Positions 10,804-64,000 of a stretch of DNA of 64,000 nucleotides are shown in pieces. The translations under genes and the position numbers were made by a program. Source of the DNA: an uncultured Bacteroidales bacterium (GTDB lineage: Bacteria > Bacteroidota > Bacteroidia > Bacteroidales > WCHB1-69); NCBI GenBank assembly GCA_900316305.1, contig ONCM01000011.1, positions 1,863 to 65,862 of the forward strand, read 5' to 3'. Numbering within the stretch: the stretch's first letter is position 1; the number at the start of each line of letters is the position of its first letter. The notes under the pieces were generated by a model, which did no database searches, was not told where the DNA came from, and was given only the letters and a program-made list of their open reading frames with translations.

Positions 10804-11176
10804 ACACTTTCCATCACCCTCACCGCCTCAGCCCAGGGCGAATGGAAGTGGGCGAACTACTGGTCGGGAAGCGATGAACTTGGCAATAGCCTTACGAATC
10901 GTTTTGAAAGGACTGCATTTGACGATGACGGAAACATATACGTTTTCGGAAGTTTCAGTGGTAGCGCGACTCTTTATGCCTCAAAATGGCACCTCGCATG
11001 ATGCTGGTGGTCATCATCCGTATATCATACTTCTGATCCGGCGCTACCCCAACCCCACCACCGACCGTGTGGTCATTGAGAGTCCCGAGGGGCTGTACGT
11101 CGCGCACGTAAGCACCCATATTGTCAGCATAGCGACAAAGTGGTTCTCTTCCCCGTTAGGGAATCCGTATCAATAG
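10804..11176 (+). pseudogene. Remnant of a T9SS-secreted protein (signal-peptide end plus beta-propeller-like start, then a frameshifted CTD fragment)
   Basis: One frame reads ...LTASAQGEWKWANYWSGSDELGN...DDDGNIYVFGSFSGSATLY then stops. Another frame reads YPNPTTDRVVIESPEGLYVAHV (start of a T9SS CTD). No start codon; the upstream gene's stop abuts it. Confidence 0.4.
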
Positions 11177-31201: not shown

Positions 31202-31212
31202 TTTTATACTTT

Positions 31213-34639: not shown

Positions 34640-34656
34640 ATACCTATATTATATAT

Positions 34657-41939: not shown

Positions 41940-42064
41940 CCATTGACTATTGACTATTGACCATTGACTGCTGACTGTGTAACCATAAACCATAAACTGT
42001 AAACTATAAACTATAAACCTCAATAACCAATAACCAATAACCAATAACCTATAACCTATAACCA
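41933..42064. repeat. Composite array TTGACYA x6 - TAAACYR x6 - CAATAAC/CTATAAC x6 (long version)
   Basis: Starts on the receptor-like gene's stop codon and ends 4 nt before the nspC ATG. Uses the same junction strings (tgactgtgtaaccataaac; taaacctcaataacc) as 8926 and 22090. Confidence 0.95.
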
Positions 42065-42068
42065 AATA

Positions 42069-43223: not shown

Positions 43224-43306
43224 TTCAGAATTATGAATTAAGAATGATGAATGATGAATAAAGAGGATAGAGGGAGGAAGAAGTAGAAGGTAAATTATAA
43301 CAAGAA

Positions 43307-43708: not shown

Positions 43709-43851
43709 GAGAATTGGAGGATGAAAAAGCGATGAAGGGGCGATGAAAAGCGATGAAGGGGCGATGAAAGGACGATGAAAAAGCGATGAAAAGCGATGAA
43801 GGGGCGATGAAAGGACGATGAAAAAGCGATGAAAAAGCGATGAAGGACGAC
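43685..43851. repeat. GAGGATAA x3, then a decamer array GCGATGAARR x about 13 with a 40-nt super-period
   Basis: Contains the HsdR_N-like gene's stop codon and fills the convergent gap to paralogue A. Confidence 0.9.
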
Positions 43852-50780: not shown

Positions 50781-50846
50781 ATTTCATCGTTCTTTCATCG
50801 TTCTTTCATCGTTCATTCATCGTTCATTCATCGCCCTTCATCGTCC
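50781..50846. repeat. Decamer-type array CATCGTTCWTT
   Basis: Lies between the acyl-CoA ligase stop and the cysS promoter region; abuts the stop at 50847. Confidence 0.85.
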
Positions 50847-52685: not shown

Positions 52686-52846
52686 TGGAGAAGGTGAACG
52701 TCCAGTTAGCAGTGAGCAGTGAGTAGTTAGCAGTTGGGCGGGAACCGTCATTGTTCTCTCCGTTAGGGGATGCATGGCAATAGCCAGGAACAGGACGGTG
52801 CGCGGGGGAAATCCATGGAAAGAGATTCTTCGGATGGTAATCGTCT
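52686..52846 (-). repeat. Terminal (truncated) cassette leader plus the first 12 nt of an Rhs core end
   Basis: Minus strand: ...CTGGCTATTGCCATGCATCCCCTAACGGAGA...CCAACTGCTAACTACTCACTGCTCACTGCTAACTGGACGTTCACCTTCTCC, then unrelated sequence. Confidence 0.7.
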
Positions 52847-53371
52847 TTAACGACCATATGTGATTTTGTTCTTCTTGTTCGTATAGAGTTTTGGATATAT
52901 GGCGTGAATTCTTTGGAAAGCCTTCTTGCGGTTGCCGAATCGTTTGTCATATTCGTATACCTTCACCCAAAGTCCTCCTGAATAATCAACGTAATAAACA
53001 GTCTTTTCGTTATTAAATGTCGTTATGTTTATGAGAACATTTCCGCTCATCAAAACTTCTTTCCACATGATGGATTTGAATTCATACGTCTTTTTTTTGG
53101 GGGGTCCTTCATACCATTCGGTATATGCCATTGTGATATATAAAGTTGCCGTATCCGGAAGCGTTTGCAATTCCTCATAAATAAGATCGTCTATTTTGAA
53201 ATGGCTTCTGAAATAGGGGAACGACAATGTGTCTCCAGGACGTGTCACACACGTGAAACCGATTGATTCAGGAAGTGTTCCGTCAACGACTACTATCGCA
53301 GGGACAATTTTTTGAGCCAACATCAAGTTGGACAGCACTAACAAAACGAAAAACAAAAATGTCTTTTTCAT
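52847..53371 (-). CDS. Putative immunity protein of cassette 1 (exported)
   Basis: Starts 9 nt after the stop of the toxin ORF. Signal peptide MKKTFLFFVLLVLSNLMLAQ. Function assigned by position only. Confidence 0.45.
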   Translation of the reverse strand: MKKTFLFFVLLVLSNLMLAQKIVPAIVVVDGTLPESIGFTCVTRPGDTLSFPYFRSHFKIDDLIYEELQTLPDTATLYITMAYTEWYEGPPKKKTYEFKSIMWKEVLMSGNVLINITTFNNEKTVYYVDYSGGLWVKVYEYDKRFGNRKKAFQRIHAIYPKLYTNKKNKITYGR

Positions 53372-53380
53372 ATTATCAAA

Positions 53381-54469
53381 TCAAAATCCGATTTTGATCT
53401 TTTTTAAATTATCAATGAGGATGCCCCCAATCATATTGCTGTTCGAATCATATACAACAGCCGTTCCCAATCTTTTTTCATACTTCACCCCTGTGGTGAA
53501 ATTGGGGATAGATTCATAACTATTTCCAACAATAACATTATAGGCATATTTTGAGAAAACGGATTTGTCCTTTTCAGATAATCTGTATGGTGTCTGAACA
53601 CAAGTCCCTGTACCATCAGGGCAACTGAAAGAATGTAATTTATGGGAGTGTATGGATAAATATCCTTTAGGATCGATTTCAATCTCTCCATCAGGAGTAC
53701 CAGTAGGATAAGTTTTGGGTAGTCCGCCAGAAAATGATGTGGCTTCTTCCCTGTCCCCACCATTGATGACCGTCCTATCATATACAGATATTATTGCTTC
53801 TATTTCAATAATATCCGTCTTCCAATCAACTGTCACCGCTGAACGGCTTGTCACCCTTTGTGCCTCATTATTTTTTGTTATGATATTGATACTTTCCTCA
53901 TCGGAAACAAAATAAACAGAAATGTCCTCTTTACCGTCTGTGCCCAAGAAATTTCCATTCCAATCTAAATACTGTCCTATCTCCTCCCCATTCGGATCCA
54001 CGCACCTCACCGGGTTGTTCGCGCAATAAACATACGGACTCAAAGAAGGATATTTGTCACTCATCGGGTCCACGCTCAACCAGACGCTGAGGTCGCTGCT
54101 GTAATACCGTGAGCCAAAGTAAGATAGACCCGTTTCGGAGTCCTTTTCTTTTGCGGAGAAGGTGAAAGTTCCGTCACGGTGTGGGTGTTGTCCGGGATTC
54201 CGCCACACGGTTGCGGTGTGCCGTGGCCGGGACTGGCCGGGGGTGTGGCGGAATGGCGGTGGGGTTGCCGGAGCGGATCCCTTGCCGGACAAGGCCTTGA
54301 AAGAACGGTTTTGCCGGTCCGCGGCGGGGGCCAAAGCCCGGAGGGAGGGCATCCCCCGTGACCACGCTGTCCTGGTTGGGACAACAGCCTGGCTGCCCGA
54401 AGCGTTTGCGGGCGCGGGCGAAATCCCCGAACGGGGATTCATCGCATGGTATGATTGGCGGCGGTTCAT
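53381..54469 (-). CDS. Cassette 1: Rhs core-end plus variable C-terminal toxin domain, fused in frame to a GC-rich Pro/Arg-rich leader with its own ATG
   Basis: FTFSAKEKDSETGLSYFGSRYYSSDLSVWLSVDPMSDKYPSLSPYVYCANNPVRCVDPNGEE is an RHS repeat-associated core end, followed by a unique about 215-aa tail. The conserved leader ATG at 54469 is in frame. Confidence 0.6.
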   Translation of the reverse strand: MNRRQSYHAMNPRSGISPAPANASGSQAVVPTRTAWSRGMPSLRALAPAADRQNRSFKALSGKGSAPATPPPFRHTPGQSRPRHTATVWRNPGQHPHRDGTFTFSAKEKDSETGLSYFGSRYYSSDLSVWLSVDPMSDKYPSLSPYVYCANNPVRCVDPNGEEIGQYLDWNGNFLGTDGKEDISVYFVSDEESINIITKNNEAQRVTSRSAVTVDWKTDIIEIEAIISVYDRTVINGGDREEATSFSGGLPKTYPTGTPDGEIEIDPKGYLSIHSHKLHSFSCPDGTGTCVQTPYRLSEKDKSVFSKYAYNVIVGNSYESIPNFTTGVKYEKRLGTAVVYDSNSNMIGGILIDNLKKIKIGF

Positions 54470-54510
54470 CGGCGGTTTTTTGACGGGGCGAAGATACGAT
54501 TTCTGAGAGT
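54167..54510 (-). repeat. GC-rich leader of cassette 1
   Basis: TATCTTCG box, ATGAACCGCCGCC, hairpin AATCCCCGTTCGGGGATT (54422-54439), and a 12-bp inverted repeat ATTCCGCCACAC/GTGTGGCGGAAT (54197-54208 / 54243-54254). Confidence 0.8.
54489..54496 (-). promoter_or_regulatory. Variant -7-like box TATCTTCG at the 5' end of the cassette-1 leader
   Basis: TCGTATCTTCGCCCCGTCAAAAA, 19 nt upstream of the leader ATG at 54469. The same string recurs at 59215 and 62977. Confidence 0.35.
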
Positions 54511-54559
54511 GATTATTTGTTCGGGATTTTGAATACAATTATAAAGGAAGACGATCCGG

Positions 54560-54784
54560 TCAAAAATGTCTGACATAAATAATAGCAGCCACCCACAATG
54601 CGCCTATGGCATAAAACCATAAATCACTAAGAATTTGAGACCAGCTTTGCTTCCCCATTCCTAAAAAATCATTATAATGGTGGACCAGCGTAAAAAACAA
54701 CAATGATGCAATAAACACTCCAATAAAAAAACATATTTTTTTTGTTTTTATTCTGCGAAGGCTGTTATTTTTTCTTTTTTCCAT
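54560..54784 (-). CDS. Putative immunity protein of cassette 2 (74 aa, two TM helices)
   Basis: Overlaps the toxin ORF end by 20 nt; has two hydrophobic helices. Assigned by position only. Confidence 0.4.
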   Translation of the reverse strand: MEKRKNNSLRRIKTKKICFFIGVFIASLLFFTLVHHYNDFLGMGKQSWSQILSDLWFYAIGALWVAAIIYVRHF

Positions 54785-55805
54785 TTTTCCATTTGTTTTT
54801 TGTTGTCATGAACCAAGAACGAATATTTAAGGCATAACCAACATCTTCAATAATGTCAGCCGCTTTCCTGACTACAGGTCCACCTGCTTCCTCAAATAGT
54901 TTAAGTGTTTTCCCAACCCCAAGTGTTGCCAAGTCTATTATTGCCCATTCTTTGTCTGATTTAGATGCTTTGTCTCCAAACATATTCTCTCCCTTGCCCA
55001 ATATCATGATATCATTTATTTGTGAAGTGATTGGCAATGCCGTGACCAAACCCTGACCAATAGCCACACCCTTTTGTGCTGCTTTCCTGTCAAAATCATC
55101 CAATTTCTCACGTCTTGTTCTCGGATCAAGGATAATTGGGGATTTAACCACTCCATCAGAAGATTGTCCAATCATAGGGATTGACGCGTCATCTTCCACA
55201 TATTGAGGTTTTGTATAACTGACATATTCTCGTTTGTTGTCAATGGAAAATTTCCCAGAAAACTTATCCCTTCTTGAATTCCTTTTGATAATTCCGCCAG
55301 TATGATGCTCTTTTCGGTATCGTCTTGCCTCCGCACGAGTGTCAAATTCACCATTGGGATCCACCATAATTATTGGGTTATTCCTGCAATAAGCGTATGG
55401 AGAAGTTGAGGCATATTTCGCTGCCATCGGGTCCACGCTCAGCCAGATGCTTAGGTCGGAGGAGTAATACCGTGAGCCAAAGTAACTTAAACCAGTTTCC
55501 AAGTCCTTTTCTTTTGCGGAGAAGGTGAAAGACAATGATGAATGATAAATGATGAATGATGAATAGTGACTGGGAGCATGCTGGCGGTTTTGTTGGAAAT
55601 TCCGCCACACGGTTGTGGTCGGCCGTGGCCGGGGATGGTTGGGAGTGTGGCGGAATGGTGGTGGGTAGGCAGTGAGTTGCGACCGTTCGCGCGCGCAGGC
55701 CGTAGGTCTGCAGGGCTTGGTGGCGGGGAAAAGGCACAACCGGTGGCGCGCGCCGGAGGTGTGCGGGCACGTGGAGAACAGGCGATATGTTCGGGTGACG
55801 GACAT
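54765..55805 (-). CDS. Cassette 2: leader plus Rhs core-end plus variable toxin domain
   Basis: The ATG at 55805 is in frame with FTFSAKEKDLETGLSYFGSRYYSSDLSIWLSVDPMAAKYASTSPYAYCRNNPIIMVDPNGE, followed by a unique basic tail. Confidence 0.6.
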   Translation of the reverse strand: MSVTRTYRLFSTCPHTSGARHRLCLFPATKPCRPTACARERSQLTAYPPPFRHTPNHPRPRPTTTVWRNFQQNRQHAPSHYSSFIIYHSSLSFTFSAKEKDLETGLSYFGSRYYSSDLSIWLSVDPMAAKYASTSPYAYCRNNPIIMVDPNGEFDTRAEARRYRKEHHTGGIIKRNSRRDKFSGKFSIDNKREYVSYTKPQYVEDDASIPMIGQSSDGVVKSPIILDPRTRREKLDDFDRKAAQKGVAIGQGLVTALPITSQINDIMILGKGENMFGDKASKSDKEWAIIDLATLGVGKTLKLFEEAGGPVVRKAADIIEDVGYALNIRSWFMTTKNKWKNGKKKK

Positions 55806-55837
55806 CAGATTTTGACAGGGTGGATGAATGAGATATC
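55530..55837 (-). repeat. GC-rich leader of cassette 2
   Basis: ATG at 55805. The same 12-bp inverted repeat ATTCCGCCACAC/GTGTGGCGGAAT (55599-55610 / 55645-55656). A CATTCAT heptamer array lies directly before FTFS. Confidence 0.8.
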
Positions 55838-56476
55838 TTATTTTATTATAGGATTTTCCATGACAGAATATGGATACCTATCAGACCATTTTAAAGCGAT
55901 AAAATTTCCACCATGATAAGCATAGACCGCTAAAAAAGGATCTATGTGAAGAAAGTATTCTATACCATCACAATAATACATTCCATCAATATAACGAGCT
56001 TCCTTGCCATCAATCGTCAATGTAAGATGTGGCAATAGAGTGTCCTCCCGAGATTTGATAACCGATAAATGTGCCATCCACGAGAGATCGTCGGGAAGTT
56101 GTTCCGTTTTGTTCGTTTTTTTCAAGAAAAGTCCATACGATTCACCAAATATATAACAGTCCCTTTTATTATAATACAAGTGACCCGTTAAAGGATTATC
56201 CGTGTATATGCCACCATAATTACAACATAATTCAGGAAGAAAAGTCTTTGGAGCATAACCGATATATGTAAAAGTCGTATCGTTTCTTTGAACGAAATTT
56301 ATCAGGAATATATAATCTTCTTTGGAATCTGAAATGTTAGAGGAAAGTATTTGTTTGAAACACTTGTTTTTAACACGAAGTTGTTGTAGTTTAACCTTGT
56401 TTTGTGAATCTACTTGCGCATCACAAATCAAAGGAATCAACAATAACAACAAATAGAATTTATATAACTTTTTCAT
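55838..56476 (-). CDS. Putative immunity protein of cassette 3 (exported)
   Basis: Signal peptide MKKLYKFYLLLLLIPLICDAQ. Starts 8 nt after the toxin stop if ATG 56476 is used. Confidence 0.45.
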   Translation of the reverse strand: MKKLYKFYLLLLLIPLICDAQVDSQNKVKLQQLRVKNKCFKQILSSNISDSKEDYIFLINFVQRNDTTFTYIGYAPKTFLPELCCNYGGIYTDNPLTGHLYYNKRDCYIFGESYGLFLKKTNKTEQLPDDLSWMAHLSVIKSREDTLLPHLTLTIDGKEARYIDGMYYCDGIEYFLHIDPFLAVYAYHGGNFIALKWSDRYPYSVMENPIIK

Positions 56477-56484
56477 TGATACAA

Positions 56485-57444
56485 TCATTTGAACCAAAGG
56501 CGATGAGTTGCTTGAAACAGATTGATTGACTTTTGAATATTCTTGGATATTTCATATCTGTAGTTTTGTTGGTCATCCGTCGAAACGTAACGGTGACGAA
56601 AAGCTTCATAGACTTTATATGTATTGGGATTATTTATCATCATAGGAATATCACAAGTTGGGCAAGGTTTACCATCCGGACCTCTGTAACTTAATTTATG
56701 TCTATAACTCCAATGACTGTGAATTTGGTATTTGACATTTTCGGGAGAACGGACTTGGTTGAAAACATCCTGATGAGATGTTCCAACAATGGTTTCTGTT
56801 TCACCAATATTCAATGCCCATTCAACATCAGTGTTTTCCGCTGCAAATTCGAAGAAATCGGTGGCAACGTTAGCATCATCAAATGACATGATATGTGTAA
56901 TGAAATCTATTTTTTTGCTAGGGTCATTTTTGTCTAGTATCAACTCTCCAGGATAGTTGTCAGAATTATGATTGATTGAACCCGCTTTATAATACCGACT
57001 AATTTCTTTCCCATTTTTATCTGTTGCATATACAATATCCACATCTGTTCTACCATTATCTCTTTTAGTCAAAGTTCCATCTCGTGCCAGATCCCACTCA
57101 TCCTCCCCATTCGGATCAACCACTTTTATAGGGTTATTGCTGCAATAAACATAGTTAGATTGATTTGGATATTTCCCCGCCATCGGGTCCACACTCAGCC
57201 ACACACTCAAATCGCTGTTGTAATACCGTGAGCCGAAGTAAGATAAGCCGGTTTCGGAGTCCTTTTCTTTGGCGGAGAAGGTGAAAGTCAGAGAGTTAGC
57301 AGTTAGCAGTGAGTAGTTAGCAGTTGGACGGAGGGAGGCAGAATAGTGTATCTCTGCGTATCGCGCATGTAGGCACGTATTTGTCCGCAGACAATCTGCG
57401 GAATTCTGCGGGATCAGTGGGCTATATGTGGAGGCGGCGGGCAT
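56485..57444 (-). CDS. Cassette 3: leader plus Rhs core-end plus variable toxin domain (contains an IHSH motif)
   Basis: The ATG at 57444 is in frame with LTFTFSAKEKDSETGLSYFGSRYYNSDLSVWLSVDPMAGKYPNQSNYVYCSNNPIKVVDPNGED, followed by a unique tail. Confidence 0.6.
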   Translation of the reverse strand: MPAASTYSPLIPQNSADCLRTNTCLHARYAEIHYSASLRPTANYSLLTANSLTFTFSAKEKDSETGLSYFGSRYYNSDLSVWLSVDPMAGKYPNQSNYVYCSNNPIKVVDPNGEDEWDLARDGTLTKRDNGRTDVDIVYATDKNGKEISRYYKAGSINHNSDNYPGELILDKNDPSKKIDFITHIMSFDDANVATDFFEFAAENTDVEWALNIGETETIVGTSHQDVFNQVRSPENVKYQIHSHWSYRHKLSYRGPDGKPCPTCDIPMMINNPNTYKVYEAFRHRYVSTDDQQNYRYEISKNIQKSINLFQATHRLWFK

Positions 57445-57475
57445 AGGATTTTGATGGGGCGATGAGAAGTTTTTA
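57286..57475 (-). repeat. GC-rich leader of cassette 3
   Basis: ATGCCCGCCGCC start. GCTAACT heptamers lie directly before FTFS. Confidence 0.75.
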
Positions 57476-57531
57476 TTAATTTGACGTTCACAATTCGGGG
57501 AATGTTCACAATTGGTATTGTTTCTCTATCA

Positions 57532-58113
57532 TTATTTTGTAGTATAAAAACGATCACATTTGATGATTTTGTTCGCTTTGTGTTTATTAATAGGTTTGTT
57601 GATTCGAATCGCAGAAGAAATGCAATCGTTTAACGCTGCTGTGTCTCTTTCGGATGCTTGAGCATATCCTACATATAAATGTTCAAATCCTCTATTGCTT
57701 ACTCCATATATATGATTTGGTTTTTCCAAGTTATAAAACAAATAATATCTCCAAAAAGTACTACCGTATCTTCCACTTTCATATAAAACACCTTCTATGG
57801 GTATATCAATTCTTTCTCCCATTTGTAAAAGGCACTGGGTTCTCAGAAGAAAGTTGTACAAAGTGTCCTGTGATTTATACGGGTATTCTTCACTAATGTA
57901 AAATACAGCGTCATGATAGGAGAACGTATAAGCATCGGAATGTCCACTTATAATGGTTTCAATTGTACTATTGAGTGGCAATTTCACCATATATGCAGGA
58001 GAGTCTTCCAATGGTTTGTATAAAAAAACTTTACAAAAATGCTTTTCTATTTTAAATGCACAACTTGCTGTTATCAGACACACTATGGAAAGCATAAGTT
58101 TACTTTTTTTCAT
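57532..58113 (-). CDS. Putative immunity lipoprotein of cassette 4
   Basis: Lipobox LITASC. Overlaps the toxin ORF end by 14 nt. Confidence 0.45.
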   Translation of the reverse strand: MKKSKLMLSIVCLITASCAFKIEKHFCKVFLYKPLEDSPAYMVKLPLNSTIETIISGHSDAYTFSYHDAVFYISEEYPYKSQDTLYNFLLRTQCLLQMGERIDIPIEGVLYESGRYGSTFWRYYLFYNLEKPNHIYGVSNRGFEHLYVGYAQASERDTAALNDCISSAIRINKPINKHKANKIIKCDRFYTTK

Positions 58114-59197
58114 AAGATTCTATATTAAAGGGCAAAAATGGACCTGTTTTATCATCGTTCAATAAGGAAGGACCTGTTCCTCCCAAATATTGCCCATCCT
58201 TACTCCATTTGACAATATAATGCGTTCTATATCCAAAGCCCAATTCTTTGCGTACAAGGTTTTCTCTATAACAAGCGACCCATTCATTTTTTTCGATTTT
58301 TTCATCAGATGTGCAATCTCTCCCAACTAAAGTGAAATCTCTCCAATTGTTATTGTCATCAAATGCATGGGATAGTTCATGCGCTAAATCGCAGGTGCCA
58401 TTATATTCTCCTAATGGATTTCCTTGTACAGGTAATCTTGTCCCATTTGGAGCCCATGTTATAGTGTTTTGTTCTTTTTTCTCATACCAACTTGTACCAG
58501 CTTTAATCGTATATTGAGTTCCTGAATTTTGTAAATCAGAAATCATACGATTCCCCTCCGTTGTCTTATTTATTTTGTCCAACGAATATTTAGCTTTATT
58601 AACAAAACGATTCTGTTGGCGCTCATTGAGAACAGCACCTTTTATGTGAGTTAAAGTACCATCTTTTTCATATCTATATTGAGAGCCTCGCCATTCAATT
58701 ACTATCTCTTCCCCATTCGGATCCACCAGTTTCACTGGGTTATCCGCGCAATAAACATACGGCGACAGCGACGCATATTTGTCACTCATCGGATCCACGC
58801 TCAACCAAATGGAGAGGTCGCTGCTGTAATACCGTGAGCCAAAGTAAGATAGACCGGTTTCGGAGTCCTTTTCTTTTGCGGAGAAGGTGAAAATCCAGTT
58901 AGCAGTCAGCAGTGAGTAGTTAGCAGTTGGGCGGAGAACAGTGGGATGCGTGGCAGTGATTCGGAGCGGCAGGCTTTCCCCGGTAGGGGATGAAGCGCGG
59001 TAGGACGGGGACACACCGCAGTCACCATGTCCCGCAGGGACAGAAGCTCGGTAGGAACCGGAAGCGGCGCGGGGTTTCCCAAGCCCCTTCAGGGGCGAGA
59101 CATGGCTCCGCGGATCGCGCGGATCACACGGATTTCCGCGAAGAGGGTCTGCGGGGAACGGCGGGAGCGGCGGGCGATATGTTCGGTGGCGGTTCAT
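58100..59197 (-). CDS. Cassette 4: leader plus Rhs core-end plus HExxH metallopeptidase-like toxin domain
   Basis: The ATG at 59197 (MNRHRTYRPP...) is in frame with FTFSAKEKDSETGLSYFGSRYYSSDLSIWLSVDPMSDKYASLSPYVYCADNPVKLVDPNGEE. The tail contains AHELSHAFD. Confidence 0.6.
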   Translation of the reverse strand: MNRHRTYRPPLPPFPADPLRGNPCDPRDPRSHVSPLKGLGKPRAASGSYRASVPAGHGDCGVSPSYRASSPTGESLPLRITATHPTVLRPTANYSLLTANWIFTFSAKEKDSETGLSYFGSRYYSSDLSIWLSVDPMSDKYASLSPYVYCADNPVKLVDPNGEEIVIEWRGSQYRYEKDGTLTHIKGAVLNERQQNRFVNKAKYSLDKINKTTEGNRMISDLQNSGTQYTIKAGTSWYEKKEQNTITWAPNGTRLPVQGNPLGEYNGTCDLAHELSHAFDDNNNWRDFTLVGRDCTSDEKIEKNEWVACYRENLVRKELGFGYRTHYIVKWSKDGQYLGGTGPSLLNDDKTGPFLPFNIESYEKK

Positions 59198-59230
59198 AGG
59201 CGTTTTTGACGGGGCGAAGATACGAAAAAA
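58892..59230 (-). repeat. GC-rich leader of cassette 4
   Basis: TATCTTCG box, ATGAACCGCCACC, block CGGAAATCCGTGTGATCCGCGCGATCCGCGGAG, hairpins GCCCCTGAAGGGGC and TCCCCTACCGGGGA, and GCTAACT heptamers. Confidence 0.8.
59215..59222 (-). promoter_or_regulatory. Variant -7-like box TATCTTCG at the 5' end of the cassette-4 leader
   Basis: 17 nt upstream of the leader ATG at 59197. Confidence 0.35.
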
Positions 59231-59317
59231 TTGGGGTTATATGAGTTGATGTGTTGTCCGAAATTCAGGGAAGATTATAATCCTTTGATAATAAAGATTA
59301 GTATCGCTACAGGAAAA

Positions 59318-59974
59318 TCACCATGCAATAGTCCAACAATATACACGATTCGTTGTGTTCTTGTCAAATGCGACTCCGCTATTATAACCATGTTTTATCC
59401 GGTCAGGCAATAAATCCCAGTTATATTCATAATCCTGAGGCAGAATAAAACCGTCTCCAAATTTCATCACACAAAAAACGATTGAATCTTGAGAAAACCG
59501 AGAATGTTTAGGGCCGTTTGAAAGAAAATCACAAATGTGCTTGAAATTGGGAATAAGATGCCCGCAGTCAGGTACGTTCTCAAAAAGTCTCTCCAACATG
59601 ATGGTGTCGTATTCAGATCTCAGCGATCGTTCATTGCTAAACGAGACAAACAAGCTGTCATTTTGGTTGACAACATATGTCGCAGATCGTAAGCATTGAT
59701 TTTGGAATCTTTGCATTTGATCGGAATCTTTGCATTGATACACCTTCCATCGGTACAATAGCTCAAATTCATCTGTAAAATAAGGGTATTGGCGATCAAC
59801 AACATTCCCTCCCATTCCAATCAATGTGAAATGTTTTATAGTATCAAATTCGTGAAAAACACTATCAGGAATAACGTAATCATTTTGAAAAAACGCACTT
59901 TTATGAATGTTTTGACACGATGCAAGACAAAAGACAAAATTCATTATTTGCAACATTAATACATATTTTCGCAT
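59318..59974 (-). CDS. Putative immunity lipoprotein of cassette 5
   Basis: MRKYVLMLQIMNFVFCLASC lipobox. The ATG at 59974 lies 4 nt after the toxin stop; the upstream part of the 316-aa track ORF is read-through of the toxin region in another frame. Confidence 0.45.
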   Translation of the reverse strand: MRKYVLMLQIMNFVFCLASCQNIHKSAFFQNDYVIPDSVFHEFDTIKHFTLIGMGGNVVDRQYPYFTDEFELLYRWKVYQCKDSDQMQRFQNQCLRSATYVVNQNDSLFVSFSNERSLRSEYDTIMLERLFENVPDCGHLIPNFKHICDFLSNGPKHSRFSQDSIVFCVMKFGDGFILPQDYEYNWDLLPDRIKHGYNSGVAFDKNTTNRVYCWTIAW

Positions 59975-59978
59975 AATC

Positions 59979-60746
59979 TTAAAACATTTTGGAAATAACT
60001 TTGAGAACTTCAACGAATACATCAGTGACTGATTGTTGTTTCGAAGACTTAGAGTAATCATACATGCGTCGCTCGGTCGCTGAGTTGATATGAGTGGCTG
60101 AAAAAAAATGAATATCGTCTTTGACGTTTTTTCGTGACAAGACAGTATATCTGCTTGACGAGTTTTTTTTAGCATATGTCCAAGAAAAGATTTTAACAGC
60201 ATATTCTGATGTTTCAGTATGCGAAAAAGAATTTGGCCCCATAGCATCAGGGAAAGATTGTGTAACACTTCTTACTTCAACATCTTGAACCAACGGTCTT
60301 TTTTCATAACCCATATTATTCATAAATGCTTCGGCATTATCACCCGTAAATGTTGCGTTCGCTATTCCATCAACACCATCTTGTCGGCATGATACATCAC
60401 TTACCTTATCCAAATTAGAATTAATGGCATCATTGTCGGATTTGTCGAACATATTATTACTACCCATCCATTTCCACCCTTTTCCCTCCAATGATTTTTC
60501 ATCTCCTTTTCGGTAATCTCGATTGTAATATACATCCCCCGTCAACTCATTTTCAAACCAGTCCTCCCCATTCGGATCCACCAGTTTCACTGGGTTATCC
60601 GCGCAATAAACATACGGGCTCAGCGAGGCATATTTGTCACTCATTGGATCCACGCTCAACCAAATACTCAAATCGCTGCTGTAATAGCGTGAGCCAAAGT
60701 AAGATAGACCGGTTTCGGAGTCCTTTTCTTTTGCGGAGAAGGTGAA
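59979..60746 (-). pseudogene. Cassette 5: Rhs core-end plus variable toxin domain, out of frame with its leader ATG (no usable ATG)
   Basis: FTFSAKEKDSETGLSYFGSRYYSSDLSIWLSVDPMSDKYASLSPYVYCADNPVKLVDPNGED plus a unique tail. The leader ATG at 60831 is in a different frame; the only in-frame start is a TTG inside the core end. Confidence 0.5.
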
Positions 60747-60858
60747 AATAGCCCGGAACGGTGGCGGGTTCGTCCCAAATCCCCGGAAGGGGATTCATCG
60801 GTCTCTGGCGATATGGGCGGTGGCGGGGCATTGGTGATTATATAATAGTGCAAAAGTA
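60747..60858 (-). repeat. Short leader of cassette 5
   Basis: TACTTTTG box, ATGCCCCGCCACC, hairpin AATCCCCTTCCGGGGATT (60778-60795), and CCGTTCCGGGCTAT. Confidence 0.75.
60851..60858 (-). promoter_or_regulatory. -7 box TACTTTTG at the 5' end of the cassette-5 leader
   Basis: 19 nt upstream of the leader ATG at 60831. Back to back with the + strand box at 60904-60911. Confidence 0.4.
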
Positions 60859-60903
60859 CAAAAATATCATATACAAAATCAATGCAACTTCAAGATTTTT
60901 TTA

Positions 60904-60911
60904 TACTTTTG
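60904..60911 (+). promoter_or_regulatory. -7 box TACTTTTG for the + strand gene pair inside the array
   Basis: 16 nt upstream of the ATG at 60928. Confidence 0.45.
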
Positions 60912-60927
60912 CAAAAATATTTGACTT

Positions 60928-61266
60928 ATGCAGATTCTTCGACAGAAAATCACAAGAGAGCATCTCAAAACATTGGCAGCCAACACATTCGTTGATATGA
61001 TCAAATGTGTCGCCGATGTTAAACAAAATCTGTTGGCTGTTGATGCTGAACTACATGCCGACCTTGAATCCATGTTGCTTGAAAATGGTTCTGAACAGGG
61101 TTGTCTTTGGGGATTTAACCTCTATCCTGACGAAACTGGCGATGATTTCATCGAATTCGATTCTCTTATCAACATCCGCTCTTGGCAAGGGAACCGCAGC
61201 AGAGACGTTGAAGACGAAAGTGTGCGTCAGCAAATCAGAGAAATTGTTTCCAAATACATTGAATAA
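60928..61266 (+). CDS. Small conserved hypothetical protein (DUF5674-like by recollection)
   Basis: 112 aa. Perfect TACTTTTG box 16 nt upstream. Opposite strand to the whole array. Confidence 0.45.
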   Translation: MQILRQKITREHLKTLAANTFVDMIKCVADVKQNLLAVDAELHADLESMLLENGSEQGCLWGFNLYPDETGDDFIEFDSLINIRSWQGNRSRDVEDESVRQQIREIVSKYIE

Positions 61267-61268
61267 CC

Positions 61269-61595
61269 ATGCAGCACGAAACCCTCAGCAACGGCGCTTG
61301 GGCCGATATGACGTTGGCCCAGCAAATGGCAAACATTGGAAGTGAAAGTTACCGTGCCACAAAATGGCTTGCTAAAGGCCGCAGTGACAACGCCGAACGT
61401 GCTTTTGAGCGTATGCAAGAGCTGGTGGACCTCACTATCGCTTACGGTCGACGCAATTCCCCAAATCGATATTCTCTTCTGAAAGAAATCTGTCGCTTCA
61501 GGGAACTTTTCTGCAAGGCATTCCTCGATTCCAATCTGACCGAACTTTCTGCACTCAACCATTATCTCGATCATTTTGCTAAGATCAGGGCATAG
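61269..61595 (+). CDS. Small helical hypothetical protein, translationally coupled to the preceding gene
   Basis: 108 aa. Starts 2 nt after the upstream stop. Confidence 0.4.
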   Translation: MQHETLSNGAWADMTLAQQMANIGSESYRATKWLAKGRSDNAERAFERMQELVDLTIAYGRRNSPNRYSLLKEICRFRELFCKAFLDSNLTELSALNHYLDHFAKIRA

Positions 61596-61800
61596 AGTTA
61601 CACAGATCTCATGCATTTGGATGCATAGCAATAGCCCGGGACGTTTGCGGGTTCGTTCCAAATCCCCGTGAGGGAATTCATGAATCTCCGCGTGTCACAC
61701 GTATCCACACGTATTAGGGCTGCGGAAATCTGCGAGGTCTGTGATATTTGATGGTGGCGGGCATAGCGGATTTTTGAGGGGGCAATGATGTGAAATTAAA
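61596..61800 (-). repeat. Leader copy not followed by an Rhs core end (precedes the inverted two-gene insert)
   Basis: ATGCCCGCCACC at 61764, hairpin AATTCCCTCACGGGGATT (61661-78), and CCCGGGCTATTGCTATGCATCC. Confidence 0.7.
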
Positions 61801-61810
61801 TAATACAATA

Positions 61811-62377
61811 TTATTCTAATCCTGTGAAATATTCTCGAGCAGTATAAAAGGCTTTTTTAGACTCCTTTTCCATGAAAACAAAGTGCCATCTTGCTGTTGG
61901 CTGAAGAAAAAACGTGGATTTCACCCCATTGTATGTTATTTCTACTTCACAACTCTCACTTTCGAATTCTCTCTTTTCGAAAACACAATACTCCGACCAA
62001 TTCCTGCTATTATAGATGCTTTTTATTCTGTTTTTAGAATAATAGACAACATAAAAGTCTTCAACCATCACCCCACTAATGCCTGCGAGTTGTATTTTGT
62101 CATCCATATTGTACACATGACGATCTAACAGAAGTTTATCCCCAACTTTTATAGATAACGTATCGTTCTCATTTATTCCAAAAATTGTAAGCACTGCATG
62201 TCTCTTTTTATACGGTTTGGCAAAATCCCAGATCTCATCAGTGGTTTGCCAATGCCTTGTTACATGCTTCGATGGGCTGGCGTAATTTATTGAATCTTGA
62301 CCTAAGGCAGTTAACGCATATATGGTTGACATAAATATGAATACAAGTGATTTAATCTGATTATTTGTCTTGCTCAT
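61811..62377 (-). CDS. Putative immunity protein of cassette 6 (exported)
   Basis: Signal peptide ...MSTIYALTALGQ. Starts 9 nt after the toxin stop. Confidence 0.45.
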   Translation of the reverse strand: MSKTNNQIKSLVFIFMSTIYALTALGQDSINYASPSKHVTRHWQTTDEIWDFAKPYKKRHAVLTIFGINENDTLSIKVGDKLLLDRHVYNMDDKIQLAGISGVMVEDFYVVYYSKNRIKSIYNSRNWSEYCVFEKREFESESCEVEITYNGVKSTFFLQPTARWHFVFMEKESKKAFYTAREYFTGLE

Positions 62378-62386
62378 AGCGATTTG

Positions 62387-62749
62387 TCAATGATGGTTGT
62401 GTCGATAGTTTTCAAAATAATGCTTCAAAATTTCATCTCTCATCCTCTCCATTTTTCTTTTACTGAACGGATGAGAGGATTTATTCACGATCTTTGCGGT
62501 AAAGTTAATGGTGATAATTTTATTCCCATTCTCATCGATTGTTATGACTATTTCTATCTCCTCCCCATCCGGATCCACCAACTTCACCGGGTTGTCTGCG
62601 CAATAAACGTAAGGCGAAAGCGAAGGATATTTCCCCGCCATCGGGTCGACGCTCAACCAAATGCTCAAATCGCTGCTGTAATAGCGTGAGCCAAAGTAAC
62701 TTAAGCCGGTTTCAACATCCTTCTCTTTTGCGGAGAACGTGTAAGACAA
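62387..62749 (-). CDS. Cassette 6: Rhs core-end plus short toxin tail, out of frame with its leader ATG (only a TTG start)
   Basis: (L)SYTFSAKEKDVETGLSYFGSRYYSSDLSIWLSVDPMAGKYPSLSPYVYCADNPVKLVDPDGEE plus a 55-aa tail. The leader ATG at 62958 is in another frame. Confidence 0.45.
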   Translation of the reverse strand: MSYTFSAKEKDVETGLSYFGSRYYSSDLSIWLSVDPMAGKYPSLSPYVYCADNPVKLVDPDGEEIEIVITIDENGNKIITINFTAKIVNKSSHPFSKRKMERMRDEILKHYFENYRHNHH

Positions 62750-62990
62750 ATGTAGAATGAAGAATGTAGAATGGCGGCGGGATACCCTTCCCCGTTAGGG
62801 GATGCATATCTGTAGCCCGGAACGGTTGCGCACGCGGGCCAAATCCCCGTGAGGGGATTCATGGATCTCCGCGGATCGCGCGAATCGCACGGATTTCCGA
62901 GAAGAGAATCTGCGGGGATATGCGCGGTCTGCGGGCGATATGTGAGGTGGCGGTTCATCGGTGGTTTTTGACGGAGCGAAGATACGAAAA
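62750..62990 (-). repeat. GC-rich leader of cassette 6
   Basis: TATCTTCG box, ATGAACCGCCACC, CGGAAATCCGTGCGATTCGCGCGATCCGCGGAG, hairpins AATCCCCTCACGGGGATT (62842-59) and TCCCCTAACGGGGA (62789-802), and TTCTACA/TTCTTCA heptamers. Confidence 0.8.
62977..62984 (-). promoter_or_regulatory. Variant -7-like box TATCTTCG at the 5' end of the cassette-6 leader
   Basis: 18 nt upstream of the leader ATG at 62958 and 7 nt after the stop of the YwqK-like gene. Confidence 0.35.
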
Positions 62991-63863
62991 TCACGAATCG
63001 GTTTTGGTACATTTCGTACCTCTGGCCTGTTTCATTCTCCATTTTCTTATGAAGCTATATGTACTCCAACCAAGAGCTTTCCGTTCGCCACGTTTCTGGT
63101 TTTTGAAAATCCGCCCCTTGGTGTCATAATAGACGGCGTTTGTCAGTTTGCCCGCCTGATAATAACGGATGCATTGGAGACCGTTGTAATGCTTTTTCGT
63201 ATAGAAGTCATATATAGTGTCTTTTACGCCATTTGTATATTTCGTTGTTGTCTCTAACATCCTTCGATGGTTGTAGAAGTTCTCTTTGTACAAGGTATTG
63301 TTTTTGTAGTATTGGACCAAACTGTCGGCCCAACAATAGGCGGAGTCTATTAGGGTGTCGTATTTCGCATAATACTTCCAAATGGGCTGGTTAAAGCCCA
63401 CGTAGGAAGTGTCATACTCGATTTTGTCCGAGAGATACCGGTCCGGATAGTTCAGATCCTCATCGCCATTCACGTAGAGGAGTCGTGTTAACAGTTCTCC
63501 ACCTGCGGAATAGCTTCTGACAACCCCGTCCGCAACACCTTGTTTGTAAGAGACCTCTCCACGCAACCGGCCGTCAGGCCAGTACTCTTTTGAAACGCCA
63601 TCTTCCAAACCTTCTTTGTAGCTGATGGTTTGAATGAGTTTACCCGTCTTGAAGTTGTAGCTGGTGTCTGATAGCTTATGCCCCATCTCATACACCGTCT
63701 TTTTCACCAGAACAGTATCGTTATCAACCTTCATGGAGATTACGAACCAGTTCCCGTGCGGCAATCCGCCCACAAGTTGGTTGTGCGCGTCATACAGACC
63801 GGTCACAGTTTGCCCAAACAACAAGGTTGGAAAGACCCCCAAAAGCAACAATAGTTTCTTCAT
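62991..63863 (-). CDS. YwqK-like (MORN-variant repeat) immunity/antitoxin family protein, exported
   Basis: Signal peptide MKKLLLLLGVFPTLLFGQ. Repeats of the G..DG....Y...G.L type (EGLEDGVSKEYWPDGRLRGEVSYKQGVADGVVRSYSAGGEL). Confidence 0.55.
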   Translation of the reverse strand: MKKLLLLLGVFPTLLFGQTVTGLYDAHNQLVGGLPHGNWFVISMKVDNDTVLVKKTVYEMGHKLSDTSYNFKTGKLIQTISYKEGLEDGVSKEYWPDGRLRGEVSYKQGVADGVVRSYSAGGELLTRLLYVNGDEDLNYPDRYLSDKIEYDTSYVGFNQPIWKYYAKYDTLIDSAYCWADSLVQYYKNNTLYKENFYNHRRMLETTTKYTNGVKDTIYDFYTKKHYNGLQCIRYYQAGKLTNAVYYDTKGRIFKNQKRGERKALGWSTYSFIRKWRMKQARGTKCTKTDS

Positions 63864-63889
63864 ATTCTGTCTGCTTTTCTCCAATCGAT

Positions 63890-64000
63890 TCATCTCTTGC
63901 GAACAATTTTTTTGCGAGAACGACAATTAGAAATCCTCAACTCAGGTCTTATAACCAATCTTCTTGATCGCATTGTTACAGAAAAACTCCAATTATCTTG
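63890..64000 (-). CDS. Possible 3' end of a further toxin ORF (cassette 7) running off the window
   Basis: The open frame from the window edge reads QDNWSFSVTMRSRRLVIRPELRISNCRSRKKIVRKR* and stops 27 nt upstream of the YwqK-like gene's ATG. The position is analogous to the other toxin ends. Confidence 0.3.
   Translation of the reverse strand, partial: QDNWSFSVTMRSRRLVIRPELRISNCRSRKKIVRKR

Follow-up and report, generated by a model that had tools for sequence, protein, structure and literature searches.

The window, a 64,000-nt stretch of contig ONCM01000011.1 from an uncultured Bacteroidales bacterium, carries the distal portion of a cassette array made up of orphan Rhs/YD-shell C-terminal toxins and their immunity genes, with the genes on the minus strand (Table 1). 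In relatives, such arrays come after a ∼3000-aa SpvB/TcdB/YD-shell toxin; here the array runs off the end of the window, and its 5′ end lies beyond it. At the array terminus, cassette 0 retains no more of the core than its first 12 nt (TTCACCTTCTCC, 52698-52687), past which there is unique DNA and then the promoter of an AMP-binding gene. The leader remnant 5b is broken within a REP-like unit at 61619 by the insertion of a gene pair. The immunity protein of cassette 6 has identical copies in L001-L006, with differing cassette orders.

Table 1. Features of the cassette array and a solo repeat unit, in window coordinates
Feature	Coordinates	Strand	Details
MORN-repeat immunity gene	62991..63926	-	next cassette upstream
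Cassette 6 leader	62744..62990	-	-7 box TATCTTCG 62984-62977; ATG 62958; block (e), hairpin (b), one REP-like unit 62815-62787, heptad array 62773-62749
Cassette 6 Rhs core tail	62555..62743	-	begins TACACGTTCTCC
Cassette 6 toxin remnant	ORF 62387-62749		after core tail; internal deletion
Cassette 6 immunity gene	61811..62377	-	188 aa
Leader remnant 5b	61600..61810	-	ATG block, RYAEI-type module, hairpin (b) variant
Inserted two-gene module	60928..61595	+	opposite strand, splits leader 5b; DUF5674 60928-61266, 108-aa ORF 61269-61595
Cassette 5 leader	60747..60866	-	-7 box TACTTTTG; ATG 60831; hairpin (b)
Cassette 5 core tail + toxin	59979..60746	-	
Cassette 5 immunity gene	about 59318-59973		
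Cassette 4 leader	58892..59225	-	-7 box TATCTTCG 59222-59215; ATG 59197, in frame; block (e), GCCCC-TGAA-GGGGC hairpin, REP-like units 59054-59028 and 59003-58975, heptad array 58928-58896
Cassette 4 core tail + toxin	58100..58891	-	TIGR03696 positions 17-75; Peptidase_M91
Cassette 4 immunity gene	57532-58113		
Cassette 3 leader	57286..57470	-	ATG 57444, in frame; RYAEI-type module, heptad array 57325-57294
Cassette 3 core tail + toxin	56485..57285	-	Toxin-JAB1 domain
Cassette 3 immunity gene	55838-56497		
Cassette 2 leader	55530..55830	-	ATG 55805, in frame; 12-bp inverted repeat (d) 55599-55656, heptad array 55564-55534 (unit TCATCAT)
Cassette 2 core tail + toxin	54765..55529	-	
Cassette 2 small downstream ORF	54560-54784		
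Cassette 1 leader	54167..54499	-	-7 box TATCTTCG 54496-54489; ATG 54469, in frame; hairpin (b), inverted repeat (d) 54197-54254
Cassette 1 core tail + toxin	53381..54166	-	
Cassette 1 immunity gene	52847-53371		
Cassette 0, solo leader remnant	52687..52850	-	array terminus; REP-like unit, heptad array 52735-52703
Solo REP-like unit CTATTGATACGGATTCCCTAACGGGGAAG	11148..11176	-	ordinary intergenic region far from the array

The original prediction described the leaders as mosaics of six recurring blocks (a-f), and all six lie where it had placed them, with ∼0 expected by chance. Block (a), TCGTATCTTCGCCCCGTCAAAAA, occurs at 54477-54499, 59203-59225, and 62965-62987 (at most one mismatch, 0 expected) and hairpin (b), AATCCCC-N4-GGGGATT, at 54422, 60778, 61661, and 62842 (0.03 expected). 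Hairpin (c), TCCCC-N4-GGGGA, is found at 52757, 58977, and 62789; block (d), a perfect 12-bp inverted repeat with a 34-nt loop, at 54197/54243 and 55599/55645; block (e) at 59106-59138 and 62867-62899; and block (f) at 52768, 61619, and 62800. These block coordinates refer to the plus strand; genes and leaders are read from the minus strand. The blocks recur in rumen and gut Bacteroidales MAGs and metagenomes. The leaders of cassettes 1, 2, and 4 have a GC content of 0.61-0.71 and the other leaders about 0.50-0.58, while the toxin and immunity genes lie below them at 0.31-0.40. The claim that such DNA is not neutral spacer holds, in that the leaders are conserved, modular, and shuffled between strains. 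What the block description missed is that block (a) is a promoter with a start codon, that blocks (c) and (f) jointly form one REP-like unit, that a ∼32-nt heptanucleotide array lies immediately upstream of the conserved core, and that the leaders are ORFs continuous with the toxin genes.

Each leader comprises the promoter and start codon of an orphan toxin gene along with the in-frame 5′ stretch of its ORF. At its 5′ end is a −7 promoter box of the Bacteroidetes type TAnnTTTG (leader promoter consensus, ttttcGTAtCTTcGCcccgTCAAAAAccaccgATG), followed by a short A-rich UTR and an ATG, with the end of the box 16-21 nt before the ATG in most leaders. The box is present in 55 of 93 leaders compared with 3 of 93 in a control window. 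In 90 of 94 genome-derived leaders, which range from 72 to 426 nt, the ATG shares its reading frame with the Rhs core tail of 63 codons; this frame is kept across about 50 leader lengths, 88 leaders lack a stop codon, and in 70 the ATG frame is the sole open one. The result was replicated in metagenomes, where the hairpin-(b) ATG codon keeps the frame of the core tail in 45 of 47 leaders. Most of the other 74 leaders likewise open with an in-frame ATG, among them minimal leaders of 19 codons, which lack hairpins but have a TATCTTTG/TACCTTTG box. The gene product would carry an N-terminal extension of 19-142 codons, joined at a fixed point to the last 63 Rhs core codons, which lead into the toxin domain. 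Among the six leaders of the window, two are out of frame, that of cassette 5 because of an 83-nt deletion relative to L003 and that of cassette 6 because one CATTCTA unit is absent, which is exactly its difference from L008 and L032. Judged from sequence alone, the leaders are likely to be active as promoters and to be translated.

On balance, we favor a model in which displaced cassettes remain expressed by virtue of their leaders, and in which leader and 190-nt core tail jointly act as direct repeats for homologous shuffling. With a leader, each displaced cassette would have a start site of its own for transcription and another for translation, so that its toxin ORF would be translated and expression maintained for the immunity gene, which is tightly linked to it or overlaps it. 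Homologous recombination, presumably of the RecA type, between the direct repeats could delete, reorder, and exchange cassettes, the full-length gene included. The mobile unit would comprise toxin, immunity gene, and leader between two core tails, and on its insertion into the core of the main gene, the displaced toxin would automatically gain a leader. The extension itself is assembled from the kind of DNA that fills the intergenic regions of this lineage. Its components are REP-like palindromic units, other short palindromes, and the ∼4.5-unit heptanucleotide array that precedes the core, with gain, loss, duplication, and recombination of these units probably giving the mosaic.

Comparison of the arrays shows that cassette order is rearranged between strains. 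In L001 the full-length gene carries a toxin/immunity module that in L003 is joined to a leader instead (2081 nt, 98.7% identity), and the M91 toxin is also found fused to the YD shell (P0014, P0104, P0120). Between two core tails, L003 is missing four of the window cassettes, and its core has a mosaic structure. The orphans match TIGR03696 at profile positions 13/17-75 and the full-length gene matches it at 1-75; the homology between the main gene and the orphans begins exactly at TTCACC. Recombination tracts extend through the 190-nt core tail, as would be expected for homologous recombination. However, about 30 "solo leaders" end roughly −5 to +12 nt from the leader/core junction, a clustering not expected from simple homologous recombination inside the core tail. 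An apparent precise cut after TNCAC is largely an ascertainment effect.

The hairpins belong to a REP-like family, in which a CTACAGATATG or CTACCGAGCTT head is followed by a covarying 5-6-bp stem, with the loop of this G+C-rich hairpin 18 nt from the start of the head. The 94 leaders of relatives contain 273 perfect hairpins whose stems are ≥5 bp, compared with 79 ± 8 in dinucleotide shuffles, and 142 whose stems are ≥6 bp, compared with 21 ± 5. Divergence is 6.3% in the stems and about 14% in the loops and remaining leader, the stems being 2.3-fold more conserved than the rest of the leader. The compensatory stem changes proposed as a check are present: the covariation score is 0.336 compared with 0.125 in shuffles (0 of 500 as high) and at most 0.099 for slid structures. 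These data support nucleotide-level constraint on the short hairpins, and the stems are therefore selected for something that the expression model does not require. The units also occur beyond the array and are not specific to cassettes; of 226 REP-like units, 124 are within leaders and about 94 are elsewhere, and some of them adjoin flippase/TonB, RelA/SpoT, and OEP/Peptidase_M1 genes in loci without the core tail.

One possible role for the stems, compatible with the model above, is that they act in RNA as REP-type elements, either as 3′ stabilizers or partial terminators of the upstream cassette mRNA or as throttles on translation of the downstream orphan toxin, with the ORF open merely to let ribosomes through. 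Besides their covariation, the stems tolerate G-U pairs (UG 17-18 at outer pairs), and the units directly follow immunity genes and, at other loci, lie downstream of ordinary genes; REPs have been reported to lie downstream of coding regions and to stabilize mRNA (PMC3733652). We nevertheless consider this role unlikely, as the hairpins are not followed by a U-tract, global folding was no better than in shuffles (sense-strand z = −0.34 and −1.75), the 19-codon leaders manage without hairpins, and ribosomes unwind hairpins within a translated ORF. The earlier suggestion of a structured RNA is supported only in part: the short stems are constrained, but no Rfam family was matched and no global fold was significant.

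The original prediction suggested that the leaders could be attC-like sites. A site-specific recombinase that excises and integrates cassettes at attC-like or rAID-1-like substrates would account for the variable cassette order, the fixed leader/core junction, the solo leaders and array ends clustered a few nucleotides from it, and hairpins conserved as structure, and Bacteroidales rAID-1 arrays do combine repetitive intergenic motifs with a tyrosine recombinase (bioRxiv 10.1101/471110). This reading is improbable. The leaders cannot be taken as noncoding DNA because their ATG stays in the toxin frame despite many lengths; they have a promoter-like box of their own and are apparently translated, and their hairpin units are not confined to cassettes. 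A XerD probe found no integrase-type recombinase in the window, which stops short of the array 5′ end, and gave one unrelated match in about 1 Mb of related loci, where arrays directly follow the full-length toxin with no recombinase between. Homology with the main gene extends over 190 nt and shows mosaic tracts, a pattern typical of homologous recombination.

The strictly kept frame could instead serve the leader peptide, as a disordered N-terminal signal for trafficking, tethering, or degradation that makes short toxins deliverable or sets their level. A recurrent N-terminus, M-x4-(T/P)-Y-(R/S)-P, and a composition consistently rich in Pro, Arg, Ala, Ser, and Gly fit such a function, but the extension stays open and in frame while its amino acid sequence is almost free to drift. 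Leader dN/dS is ∼0.8, substitutions fall evenly on the codon positions (284/295/267), and 128 changes are synonymous and 304 nonsynonymous, compared with 497 to 105 in the core tail. Conservation tracks the DNA stems and not the residues, lengths span 19 to 142 codons, and the peptide has no Pfam or NCBIfam match and no signal-peptide features. AlphaFold predicts residues 1-162 to be disordered (pLDDT <50, compared with about 90 in the toxin domain). A functional peptide is improbable.

Heptad arrays are present in most intergenic gaps of the window. In leaders, their length is tight (30-34 nt in 61 of 77), which the favored model leaves unexplained. Slipped-strand phase variation, in which gain or loss of one 7-nt unit shifts the frame and so turns the orphan toxin on or off, would suit the one-unit frame loss in cassette 6 and the greater resemblance of units within than between arrays, but it is very improbable given imperfect copies (about 4.5 per array), the nearly constant array length, the 90 of 94 leaders in frame, and the same kind of array in ordinary intergenic regions, where frame is irrelevant.

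The locus resembles the orphan toxin/immunity arrays downstream of Rhs, CdiA, and MafB polymorphic toxins. As there, a full-length YD-shell toxin is followed by cassettes of a conserved core piece, a variable C-terminal toxin, and an immunity gene, with exchange via the common core (PMC3482391). Here, however, every orphan has a dedicated conserved promoter, ATG, and in-frame extension, the junction is at one fixed core codon, and the extension consists partly of REP-like and heptamer repeats. Rhs orphan displacement models are kin to this array type. Classical orphans, to the best of our knowledge, have been described as having no translation start.

The repeats themselves resemble REP/BIME and Rickettsia palindromic elements, being short units with a conserved unpaired tag and a covarying stem that occur as singletons and regularly spaced clusters, mainly extragenic but sometimes translated in frame, often N-terminally. 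In contrast to GTAG/CGTC-tagged REPs, the tag is CTAC(A/C)G, 5′ of the hairpin with a gap of about 6 nt, an order that mirrors the canonical GTAG-hairpin arrangement; a survey reported no GTAG REPs for Bacteroidetes (PMC3733652). Unlike REP/BIME, the units are systematically recruited to the 5′ end of one gene family. The heptamers are like the TAACTGA-type intergenic repeats of Beggiatoaceae, Cyanobacteria, and a few Bacteroidetes, of unknown function, in being tandem 7-nt units poor in G that often lie immediately before start codons, with 7-nt-step indels (PMC4679880). They differ in having many units per genome (CTAACTG, CATTCTA, ATAAACC, GTCAACA, and others), in occupying most intergenic gaps, and in being read as codons within leaders.

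Integron cassettes are promoterless. The cassettes here share with them a tandem arrangement, conserved hairpin-containing DNA in between, and strain-variable order, and a circular intermediate of core and toxin-immunity-leader is formally possible, but no intI was found, stems of 5-8 bp with tetraloops take the place of 57-141-nt imperfect attC palindromes with R/L boxes, the cassettes bring promoters of their own, the element constitutes the 5′ portion of an ORF, and the repeat common to the acceptor site is a 190-nt coding segment. With rAID-1, defined by a 5′ XerD-like recombinase and orphan immunity gene arrays, they share a Bacteroidales host, co-oriented low-GC genes related to interbacterial toxins and immunity, and GC-skewed repetitive DNA between genes (bioRxiv 10.1101/471110; PMC12247911). 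Unlike in rAID-1, the available flanks show no recombinase, and the arrays follow a full-length toxin and consist of toxin and immunity pairs with Rhs core tails.

Downstream of each leader, the GC-rich DNA that precedes every toxin cassette, lies a conserved segment of ∼190 nt, with the genes on the minus strand. This core tail encodes FTFSAKEKDSETGLSYFGSRYY..VDPNGEE, the closing stretch of the RHS repeat-associated core domain (TIGR03696, E = 1e-16 to 1e-17); profile positions 13/17-75 are covered in the orphans and 1-75 in the main gene, that is, the full-length YD-shell toxin gene, of the related locus L001. Variable toxin domains, Toxin-JAB1 and Peptidase_M91 among them, stand 3' of the core tails together with small immunity-type genes. 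In L001, an array of like kind follows a 3061-aa protein with SpvB, TcdB_toxin_midN, FG-GAP, and TEN_YD-shell domains, and in the related locus L047 an ORF of >2446 aa lies upstream of the array; it is in these two relatives that a full-length shell gene is seen upstream, the window ending inside its array. Homology between main gene and orphans starts exactly at TTCACC. When leader plus core peptides were scanned against 185,579 species genomes, 71 loci emerged, nearly all from rumen or gut uncultured Bacteroidales. The RHS core tails, the array behind the full-length toxin in L001, and the scan results together show that the window holds the distal portion of an orphan Rhs-type toxin/immunity array, which extends past the window edge at 64000 and stops at ∼52690 beside an AMP-binding enzyme gene. 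One toxin/immunity module (2081 nt, 98.7% identity) sits on the full-length gene in L001 and on a leader in the related locus L003, so a variable toxin with its cognate immunity is common to main-gene and orphan positions; M91 toxins were also found attached to the YD shell. Feature coordinates are collected in the table.

Coordinates of features in the window and in related loci (L-numbered)
Feature	Position	Strand	Details
Core-tail start	54166, 55529, 57285, 58891, 60746	-	TTCACCTTCTCC, exact start in window
Core-tail start, cassette 6	62743	-	TACACGTTCTCC, window sequence
Immunity genes	52847-53371, 55838-56497, 57532-58113, 59318-59973, 61811-62377, 62991-63926		window
DUF5674 gene and 108-aa partner	60928-61595	+	inserted inside leader; also in L003, L006, L033
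Array and solo-leader ends	window 52687-52698; L033, L113, L116, L007, L037, L041, L048, L068, L089, L091		junction zone
Leader head with YD-shell fragment	L012 ∼10470-11933; L019 ∼3200-4670; L049 547-1234		in-frame fusions
Solo REP-like unit	11148-11176		window, outside the array
Intergenic heptad arrays	395-466, 3803-3847, 5477-5617, 7954-8033, 10155-10225, 13579-13690, 14610-14669, 21939-22192, 31212-31331, 35511-35548, 39078-39110, 41933-42065, 43228-43259		window
Intergenic arrays with leader-type units	3803-3847; 39078-39110; 10155-10225		window; ATTCTAC; AGTTAGC; AATGATG
CGATGAA-type repeat	2301-2402		window; CGATGAAAAA x10
CGATGAA-type repeat	34656-34750		window; TTCATCGTCT x9.5
CGATGAA-type repeat	43720-43844		window; GATGAAAAAGC x11.5
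CGATGAA-type repeat	50782-50844		window; TTTCATCGTTC x5.8

Several observations concern the cassette genes themselves. Most window immunity proteins have, judged by eye from the translations, a start resembling a signal peptide or lipoprotein (e.g., MKKTFLFFVLLVLSNLMLAQ, MRKYVLMLQIMNFVFCLASCQ), which suggests that the toxins may act in the periplasm and that orphan toxins may do no harm when expressed in the cytoplasm. The immunity protein encoded at 61811-62377 has an identical copy on metagenome contigs where the neighboring cassettes vary from contig to contig; the last immunity gene of the window gave no exact match on other contigs. The cassette-6 toxin (window 62387-62749 against L001 9194-9947) has lost ∼400 nt relative to the 393-aa L001 version, and identity is only 86% over its 5' part, against 99% for the immunity gene; in cassette 6 the toxin is decaying and the immunity gene has been preserved. 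The insertion of the DUF5674 pair cuts a REP-like hairpin of the leader at 61619, and the promoter of the DUF5674 gene faces that of cassette 5 (27-nt inverted repeat, 60842-60920).

The leaders were originally predicted to be GC-rich mosaics of six recurring modules, labeled (a)-(f), and this description was borne out. Every module is present at its position in the window, far above chance, and the GC content of the leaders is 0.61-0.71 in cassettes 1, 2, and 4 and ∼0.50-0.58 in the others, against 0.31-0.40 in the genes. In window cassettes 1-4, the frame set by an ATG in block (a) stays open across the entire leader and into the core, and in cassettes 5 and 6 the leader ATG is out of frame with the core. 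From 224 core tails in the window and the first 77 loci we obtained 168 distinct orphan upstream regions, of which 94 contain a recognizable ATG-N14-ATATCGCC block. These 94 leaders range from 72 to 426 nt with ∼50 different lengths, many 3 nt apart; the ATG-to-core distance is a multiple of three in 90, a stop codon is absent in 88, and the ATG frame is the sole open one in 70. In an independent metagenome sample, gathered by DNA pattern, a core tail follows 47 of 68 copies of hairpin (b), 45 of the 47 in frame. Most of the other 74 orphans have an in-frame ATG at the start, and a minimal leader class consists of 19 codons (MNQRITHT..AES) with neither hairpins nor heptads.

The consensus 5' of the leader ATG is ttttcGTAtCTTcGCcccgTCAAAAAccaccgATG. 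A TAnnTT[TC][GC] box occurs in 55 of 93 leaders versus 3 of 93 in a control window, its end usually 16-21 nt before the ATG, and the housekeeping gene at 52607 has a like layout (tgTATCTTTGcc..24 nt..ATG). The Bacteroidetes -7 promoter element is TAnnTTTG. Given in-frame ATGs and a -7-type box at a set distance, block (a) is best read as a putative promoter, short UTR, start codon, and first codons. Derivation of the leader from the 5' end of the main gene is ruled out, as the main gene has an unrelated, signal/TM-like start (MRQYLLMAIAG...). Internal translation initiation at the heptad array, proposed by analogy with heptad arrays that abut ordinary start codons, was rejected because there is no consistent start codon at the core start. 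Used alone as a protein query, the leader peptide brought up just 14 leader ORFs, all truncated or degenerate, and added no new context. The leader head (ATG block plus RYARYAEI-type module) is also fused in frame to much longer YD-shell fragments, through at least two other junctions (ASGWQTF.YGKLGE and VLYWDEQNRL); the head has thus been attached to truncated toxin genes on more than one occasion.

The N-terminal leader "peptide" is common to hundreds of predicted proteins with unrelated toxin domains. When 38 same-length leader pairs were compared, substitutions were spread evenly over the codon positions (284/295/267), and single changes in the leader were 128 synonymous to 304 non-synonymous (25.7% synonymous expected at random), with dN/dS of ∼0.8; the adjoining core tail gave 497 to 105 and ∼0.06. 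AlphaFold2 modeling of the cassette-4 ORF with 21 homologues assigned pLDDT <50 to residues 1-162 (leader plus core tail) and ∼90 to the M91 toxin domain. By these comparisons, the leader appears to be translated, yet not selected as protein.

At the nucleotide level, leaders contain several independent 5-8-bp hairpins, and perfect ones outnumber those in dinucleotide shuffles by 3.5- to 7-fold. Among 65 distinct instances of CCCC-N3-5-GGGG, the closing pair is T:A or G:C in 62, compared with 52% paired when partners are shuffled, and divergence between related leaders is 6.3% in stems, 14.1% in loops, and 14.7% in the rest. Blocks (c) and (f) turned out to be two halves of one REP-like unit, in which a head, CTACAGATATG (or CTATTGCYATG) or else CTACCGAGCTT, is followed by the hairpin; the distance from head start to hairpin loop is 18 nt in 106 of 161 units. 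Stems vary with complementarity kept (ATCCCC/GGGGAT, AACGCC/GGCGTT, AACCCC/GGGGTT, TGTCCC/GGGACA, ACGTCCC/GGGACGT, TTGCCCC/GGGGCAA, TCAGCCC/GGGCTGA). Compensatory change in the stems, which was looked for as a check on the original prediction, is evident across 85 distinct units: at the fifth pair (16-29), which was not used for selecting them, there are 45 UA, 21 GC, 11 AU, 1 UG, and 7 unpaired, and the covariation score is 0.336 versus 0.125 ± 0.013 for shuffles (none of 500 reached it) and 0.099 or less for slid structures. Occurrence outside the locus was likewise found. A sample of ∼1.4 Mb, biased toward toxin loci, holds 226 units, 124 in leaders and ∼94 elsewhere, including loci with no Rhs core nearby: L097 (polysaccharide flippase, DUF4301, TonB), L104 (RelA/SpoT, DUF5618), and L133 (outer-membrane efflux protein, T9SS-tailed M1 peptidase). 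Clustered units are spaced 51-54 nt or 94 nt apart. In L104, positions 9266-11339 form a ∼1.38-kb tandem duplication without an Rhs core nearby, and each copy has a DUF5618 gene preceded by one REP-like unit pair and a short heptad array, alike in both. On the coding strand, hairpin loops are mostly TNNC (TGAC, TAAC, TTAC, TGGC), or GNNA on the opposite strand, and a subset are true GNRA (GTAA, GTGA, GCGA).

The hairpins do not add up to the structured RNA that had been offered as one explanation. Whole-leader folds are no better than shuffles and not convincing (sense z = -0.34 and -1.75; antisense -2.1), and an Rfam search of the array at permissive thresholds gave no family, only two chance-level matches (E = 0.6-0.7) far below gathering thresholds. 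RNAalifold on 15 full leaders recovered three small hairpins with little covariation, because leader alignments are mosaic. Only local hairpins are real in the leaders; no significant global fold emerged. In the cassette-4 leader, the antisense fold is slightly better than the sense fold (z = -2.1 vs -0.34).

The second leader component, which was not part of the original prediction, is an array of tandem 7-nt units directly before the core. A pronounced 7-nt periodicity marks the last 36 nt ahead of the core: mean autocorrelation reaches 0.58 at lag 7 and 0.56 at lag 14, other lags give ∼0.25, and 94 of 136 distinct pre-core sequences have their best lag at 7. The unit varies by cassette (CTAACTG, TCATCAT, CATTCTA, TCACTGN, CAACTGT, CCCTGNC); array length is nearly constant, 30-34 nt in 61 of 77 leaders. 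Window cassette 6 has one CATTCTA unit fewer than its relatives in L008 and L032, which puts it out of frame. Within the 64-kb window, Tandem Repeats Finder placed period-7 arrays in most of the gaps between genes; some have leader-type units, and many abut start codons (ATGs at 22202, 31201, 5454, and 8012 in the window). It would appear that the leader body is the intergenic-type DNA of this lineage, filtered to stay open in frame. The intergenic arrays comprise 4-10 units (including AAGAGCT, ATTCTAC, GTCAACA, ATAAACC, CAATAAC, TGGTTTA, and AGTTAGC) and largely fill most window gaps, several abutting start codons in G-poor orientation; they also occur in the flanks of L013, L048, and L072. 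A second intergenic tandem class has 10-11-nt units containing CGATGAA and lies beside gene starts and ends.

Cassettes have been rearranged, as the original prediction anticipated. L003 corresponds to window 62431 to 60747 joined to window 54169-52649; it thereby lacks the four window cassettes that lie between two core tails, and its core combines patches of both parental cores. Relative to L003, the cassette-5 leader of the window has an 83-nt deletion. Blocks shared at ≥96% tend to end between -100 and +200 relative to the core start. Mapping of crossovers from the ends of ≥97%-identity blocks was set aside, since all cassettes share the core and alignments extend through it, so that the pile-up at -25..0 does not locate crossovers. 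Some 30 "solo leaders", including the array end at 52687-52850, stop within ∼-5..+12 nt of the leader/core junction. Arrays and solo leaders often end after 5-12 nt of core tail (e.g., TTCACCTTCTCC and then unique DNA), and others stop with the last heptad unit. The idea of a precise cut after T(T/A)CAC proved to rest mostly on ascertainment: without that search requirement, ends scatter around the junction. The leader/core junction zone still appears to be a preferred, recurrent rearrangement boundary.

In the simplest model, the 190-nt core tails, and to a smaller degree the leaders, would serve as the sites of homologous recombination in these events. A core|toxin-immunity-leader|core segment could loop out and re-insert into any core; upon insertion into the main gene, the displaced toxin would inherit the incoming leader and keep a promoter and start codon. 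Arrays with a visible 5' end (L001, L047) have no recombinase between main gene and array, the toxin gene lying directly upstream. A tblastn search with a XerD probe, a weak test, gave no match in the window, where the 5' flank is missing, and one unrelated match in ∼1 Mb from 77 loci. The hairpin stems are selected for something that a leader serving as an expression adaptor does not require. The leader heptad arrays have a fixed length. With the junction zone as a preferred boundary, there is a modest probability that a structure- or heptad-recognizing protein takes part. We consider it unlikely that the leader is a purpose-built "cassette adaptor" of a toxin-cassette system that is recombinase-independent or depends on an unrecognized nuclease, with REP-like hairpins and fixed-length heptads as active cis-elements. 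In such a system, an HUH/RAYT-type or oligomeric heptad-binding protein might recognize the elements as single-stranded DNA or RNA, and the elements might set the cassette boundary at the leader/core junction and promote capture and excision or gate toxin translation; if true, it would be an integron-like system built on a coding-sequence repeat.

In the usual view, orphan toxin modules are spare parts that stay silent, with immunity genes somehow expressed. Here, a large group of rumen and gut Bacteroidales seems to give every spare module a standard portable gene start and to keep the toxin frame actively open, which would imply that the spares are expressed units. The portable start also suggests how insertion of a cassette into the main gene could automatically equip the displaced toxin with a fresh promoter and start codon. 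The leaders illustrate clearly that palindromic "extragenic" repeats and heptamer arrays can apparently be translated within hundreds of proteins with DNA- or RNA-level constraint kept, which is relevant to gene calling and to reading low-complexity N-termini of metagenomic proteins, and they expose two little-described genome-wide repeat classes in uncultured Bacteroidales.

Among known systems, the locus comes closest to Rhs/CDI-type orphan arrays; the hairpins are nearest to REP-like repeats and RPE-like in-frame palindromes, and the heptads to TAACTGA-type arrays. An integron has its integrase next to the array, and its attC site, a single imperfect palindrome of 57-141 nt, closes a promoterless ORF at the 3' end. 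The leaders differ on each count: a weak search gave no integrase match in the window, the site architecture is wrong, the cassettes have their own promoter boxes, and the leader is the 5' part of ORFs. Overall, the observation behind the original prediction is confirmed and its interpretation partly supported: structured, conserved, and shuffled DNA stands, and attC-like, non-coding, and cassette-specific DNA does not. [quoted passage not shown] The array resembles them in taxon, in at least two co-oriented genes at GC ≤41% (here 0.31-0.40), and in repetitive leaders as spacers. Neither defining feature is seen here: no such recombinase was found in related arrays with a visible 5' end, the 5' end of the window array lying outside the window, and the array does not consist of orphan immunity genes. 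REP/BIME repeats occasionally lie inside ORFs, often at N-termini (PMC3733652), and share with the leader units many copies, a conserved unpaired tag, a covarying stem, genome-wide spread, and spaced clusters. Here the tag is CTAC, 5' of the hairpin at ∼6-nt spacing (GTAG 3' on the other strand), mirroring the canonical arrangement, in which a GTAG tag lies directly 5' of the stem and a RAYT transposase is associated; we would call the units REP-like, a label that stops short of REPs. TAACTGA intergenic heptamer repeats, of unknown function, occur in Beggiatoaceae, Cyanobacteria, and a few Bacteroidetes (PMC4679880) and are likewise tandem 7-nt intergenic units, often just 5' of start codons; the window arrays are far more pervasive and diverse. 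As judged from sequence, the locus is most probably a set of orphan Rhs toxin cassettes, each with a portable promoter, ATG, and in-frame leader built from genome-wide REP-like and heptamer repeats.
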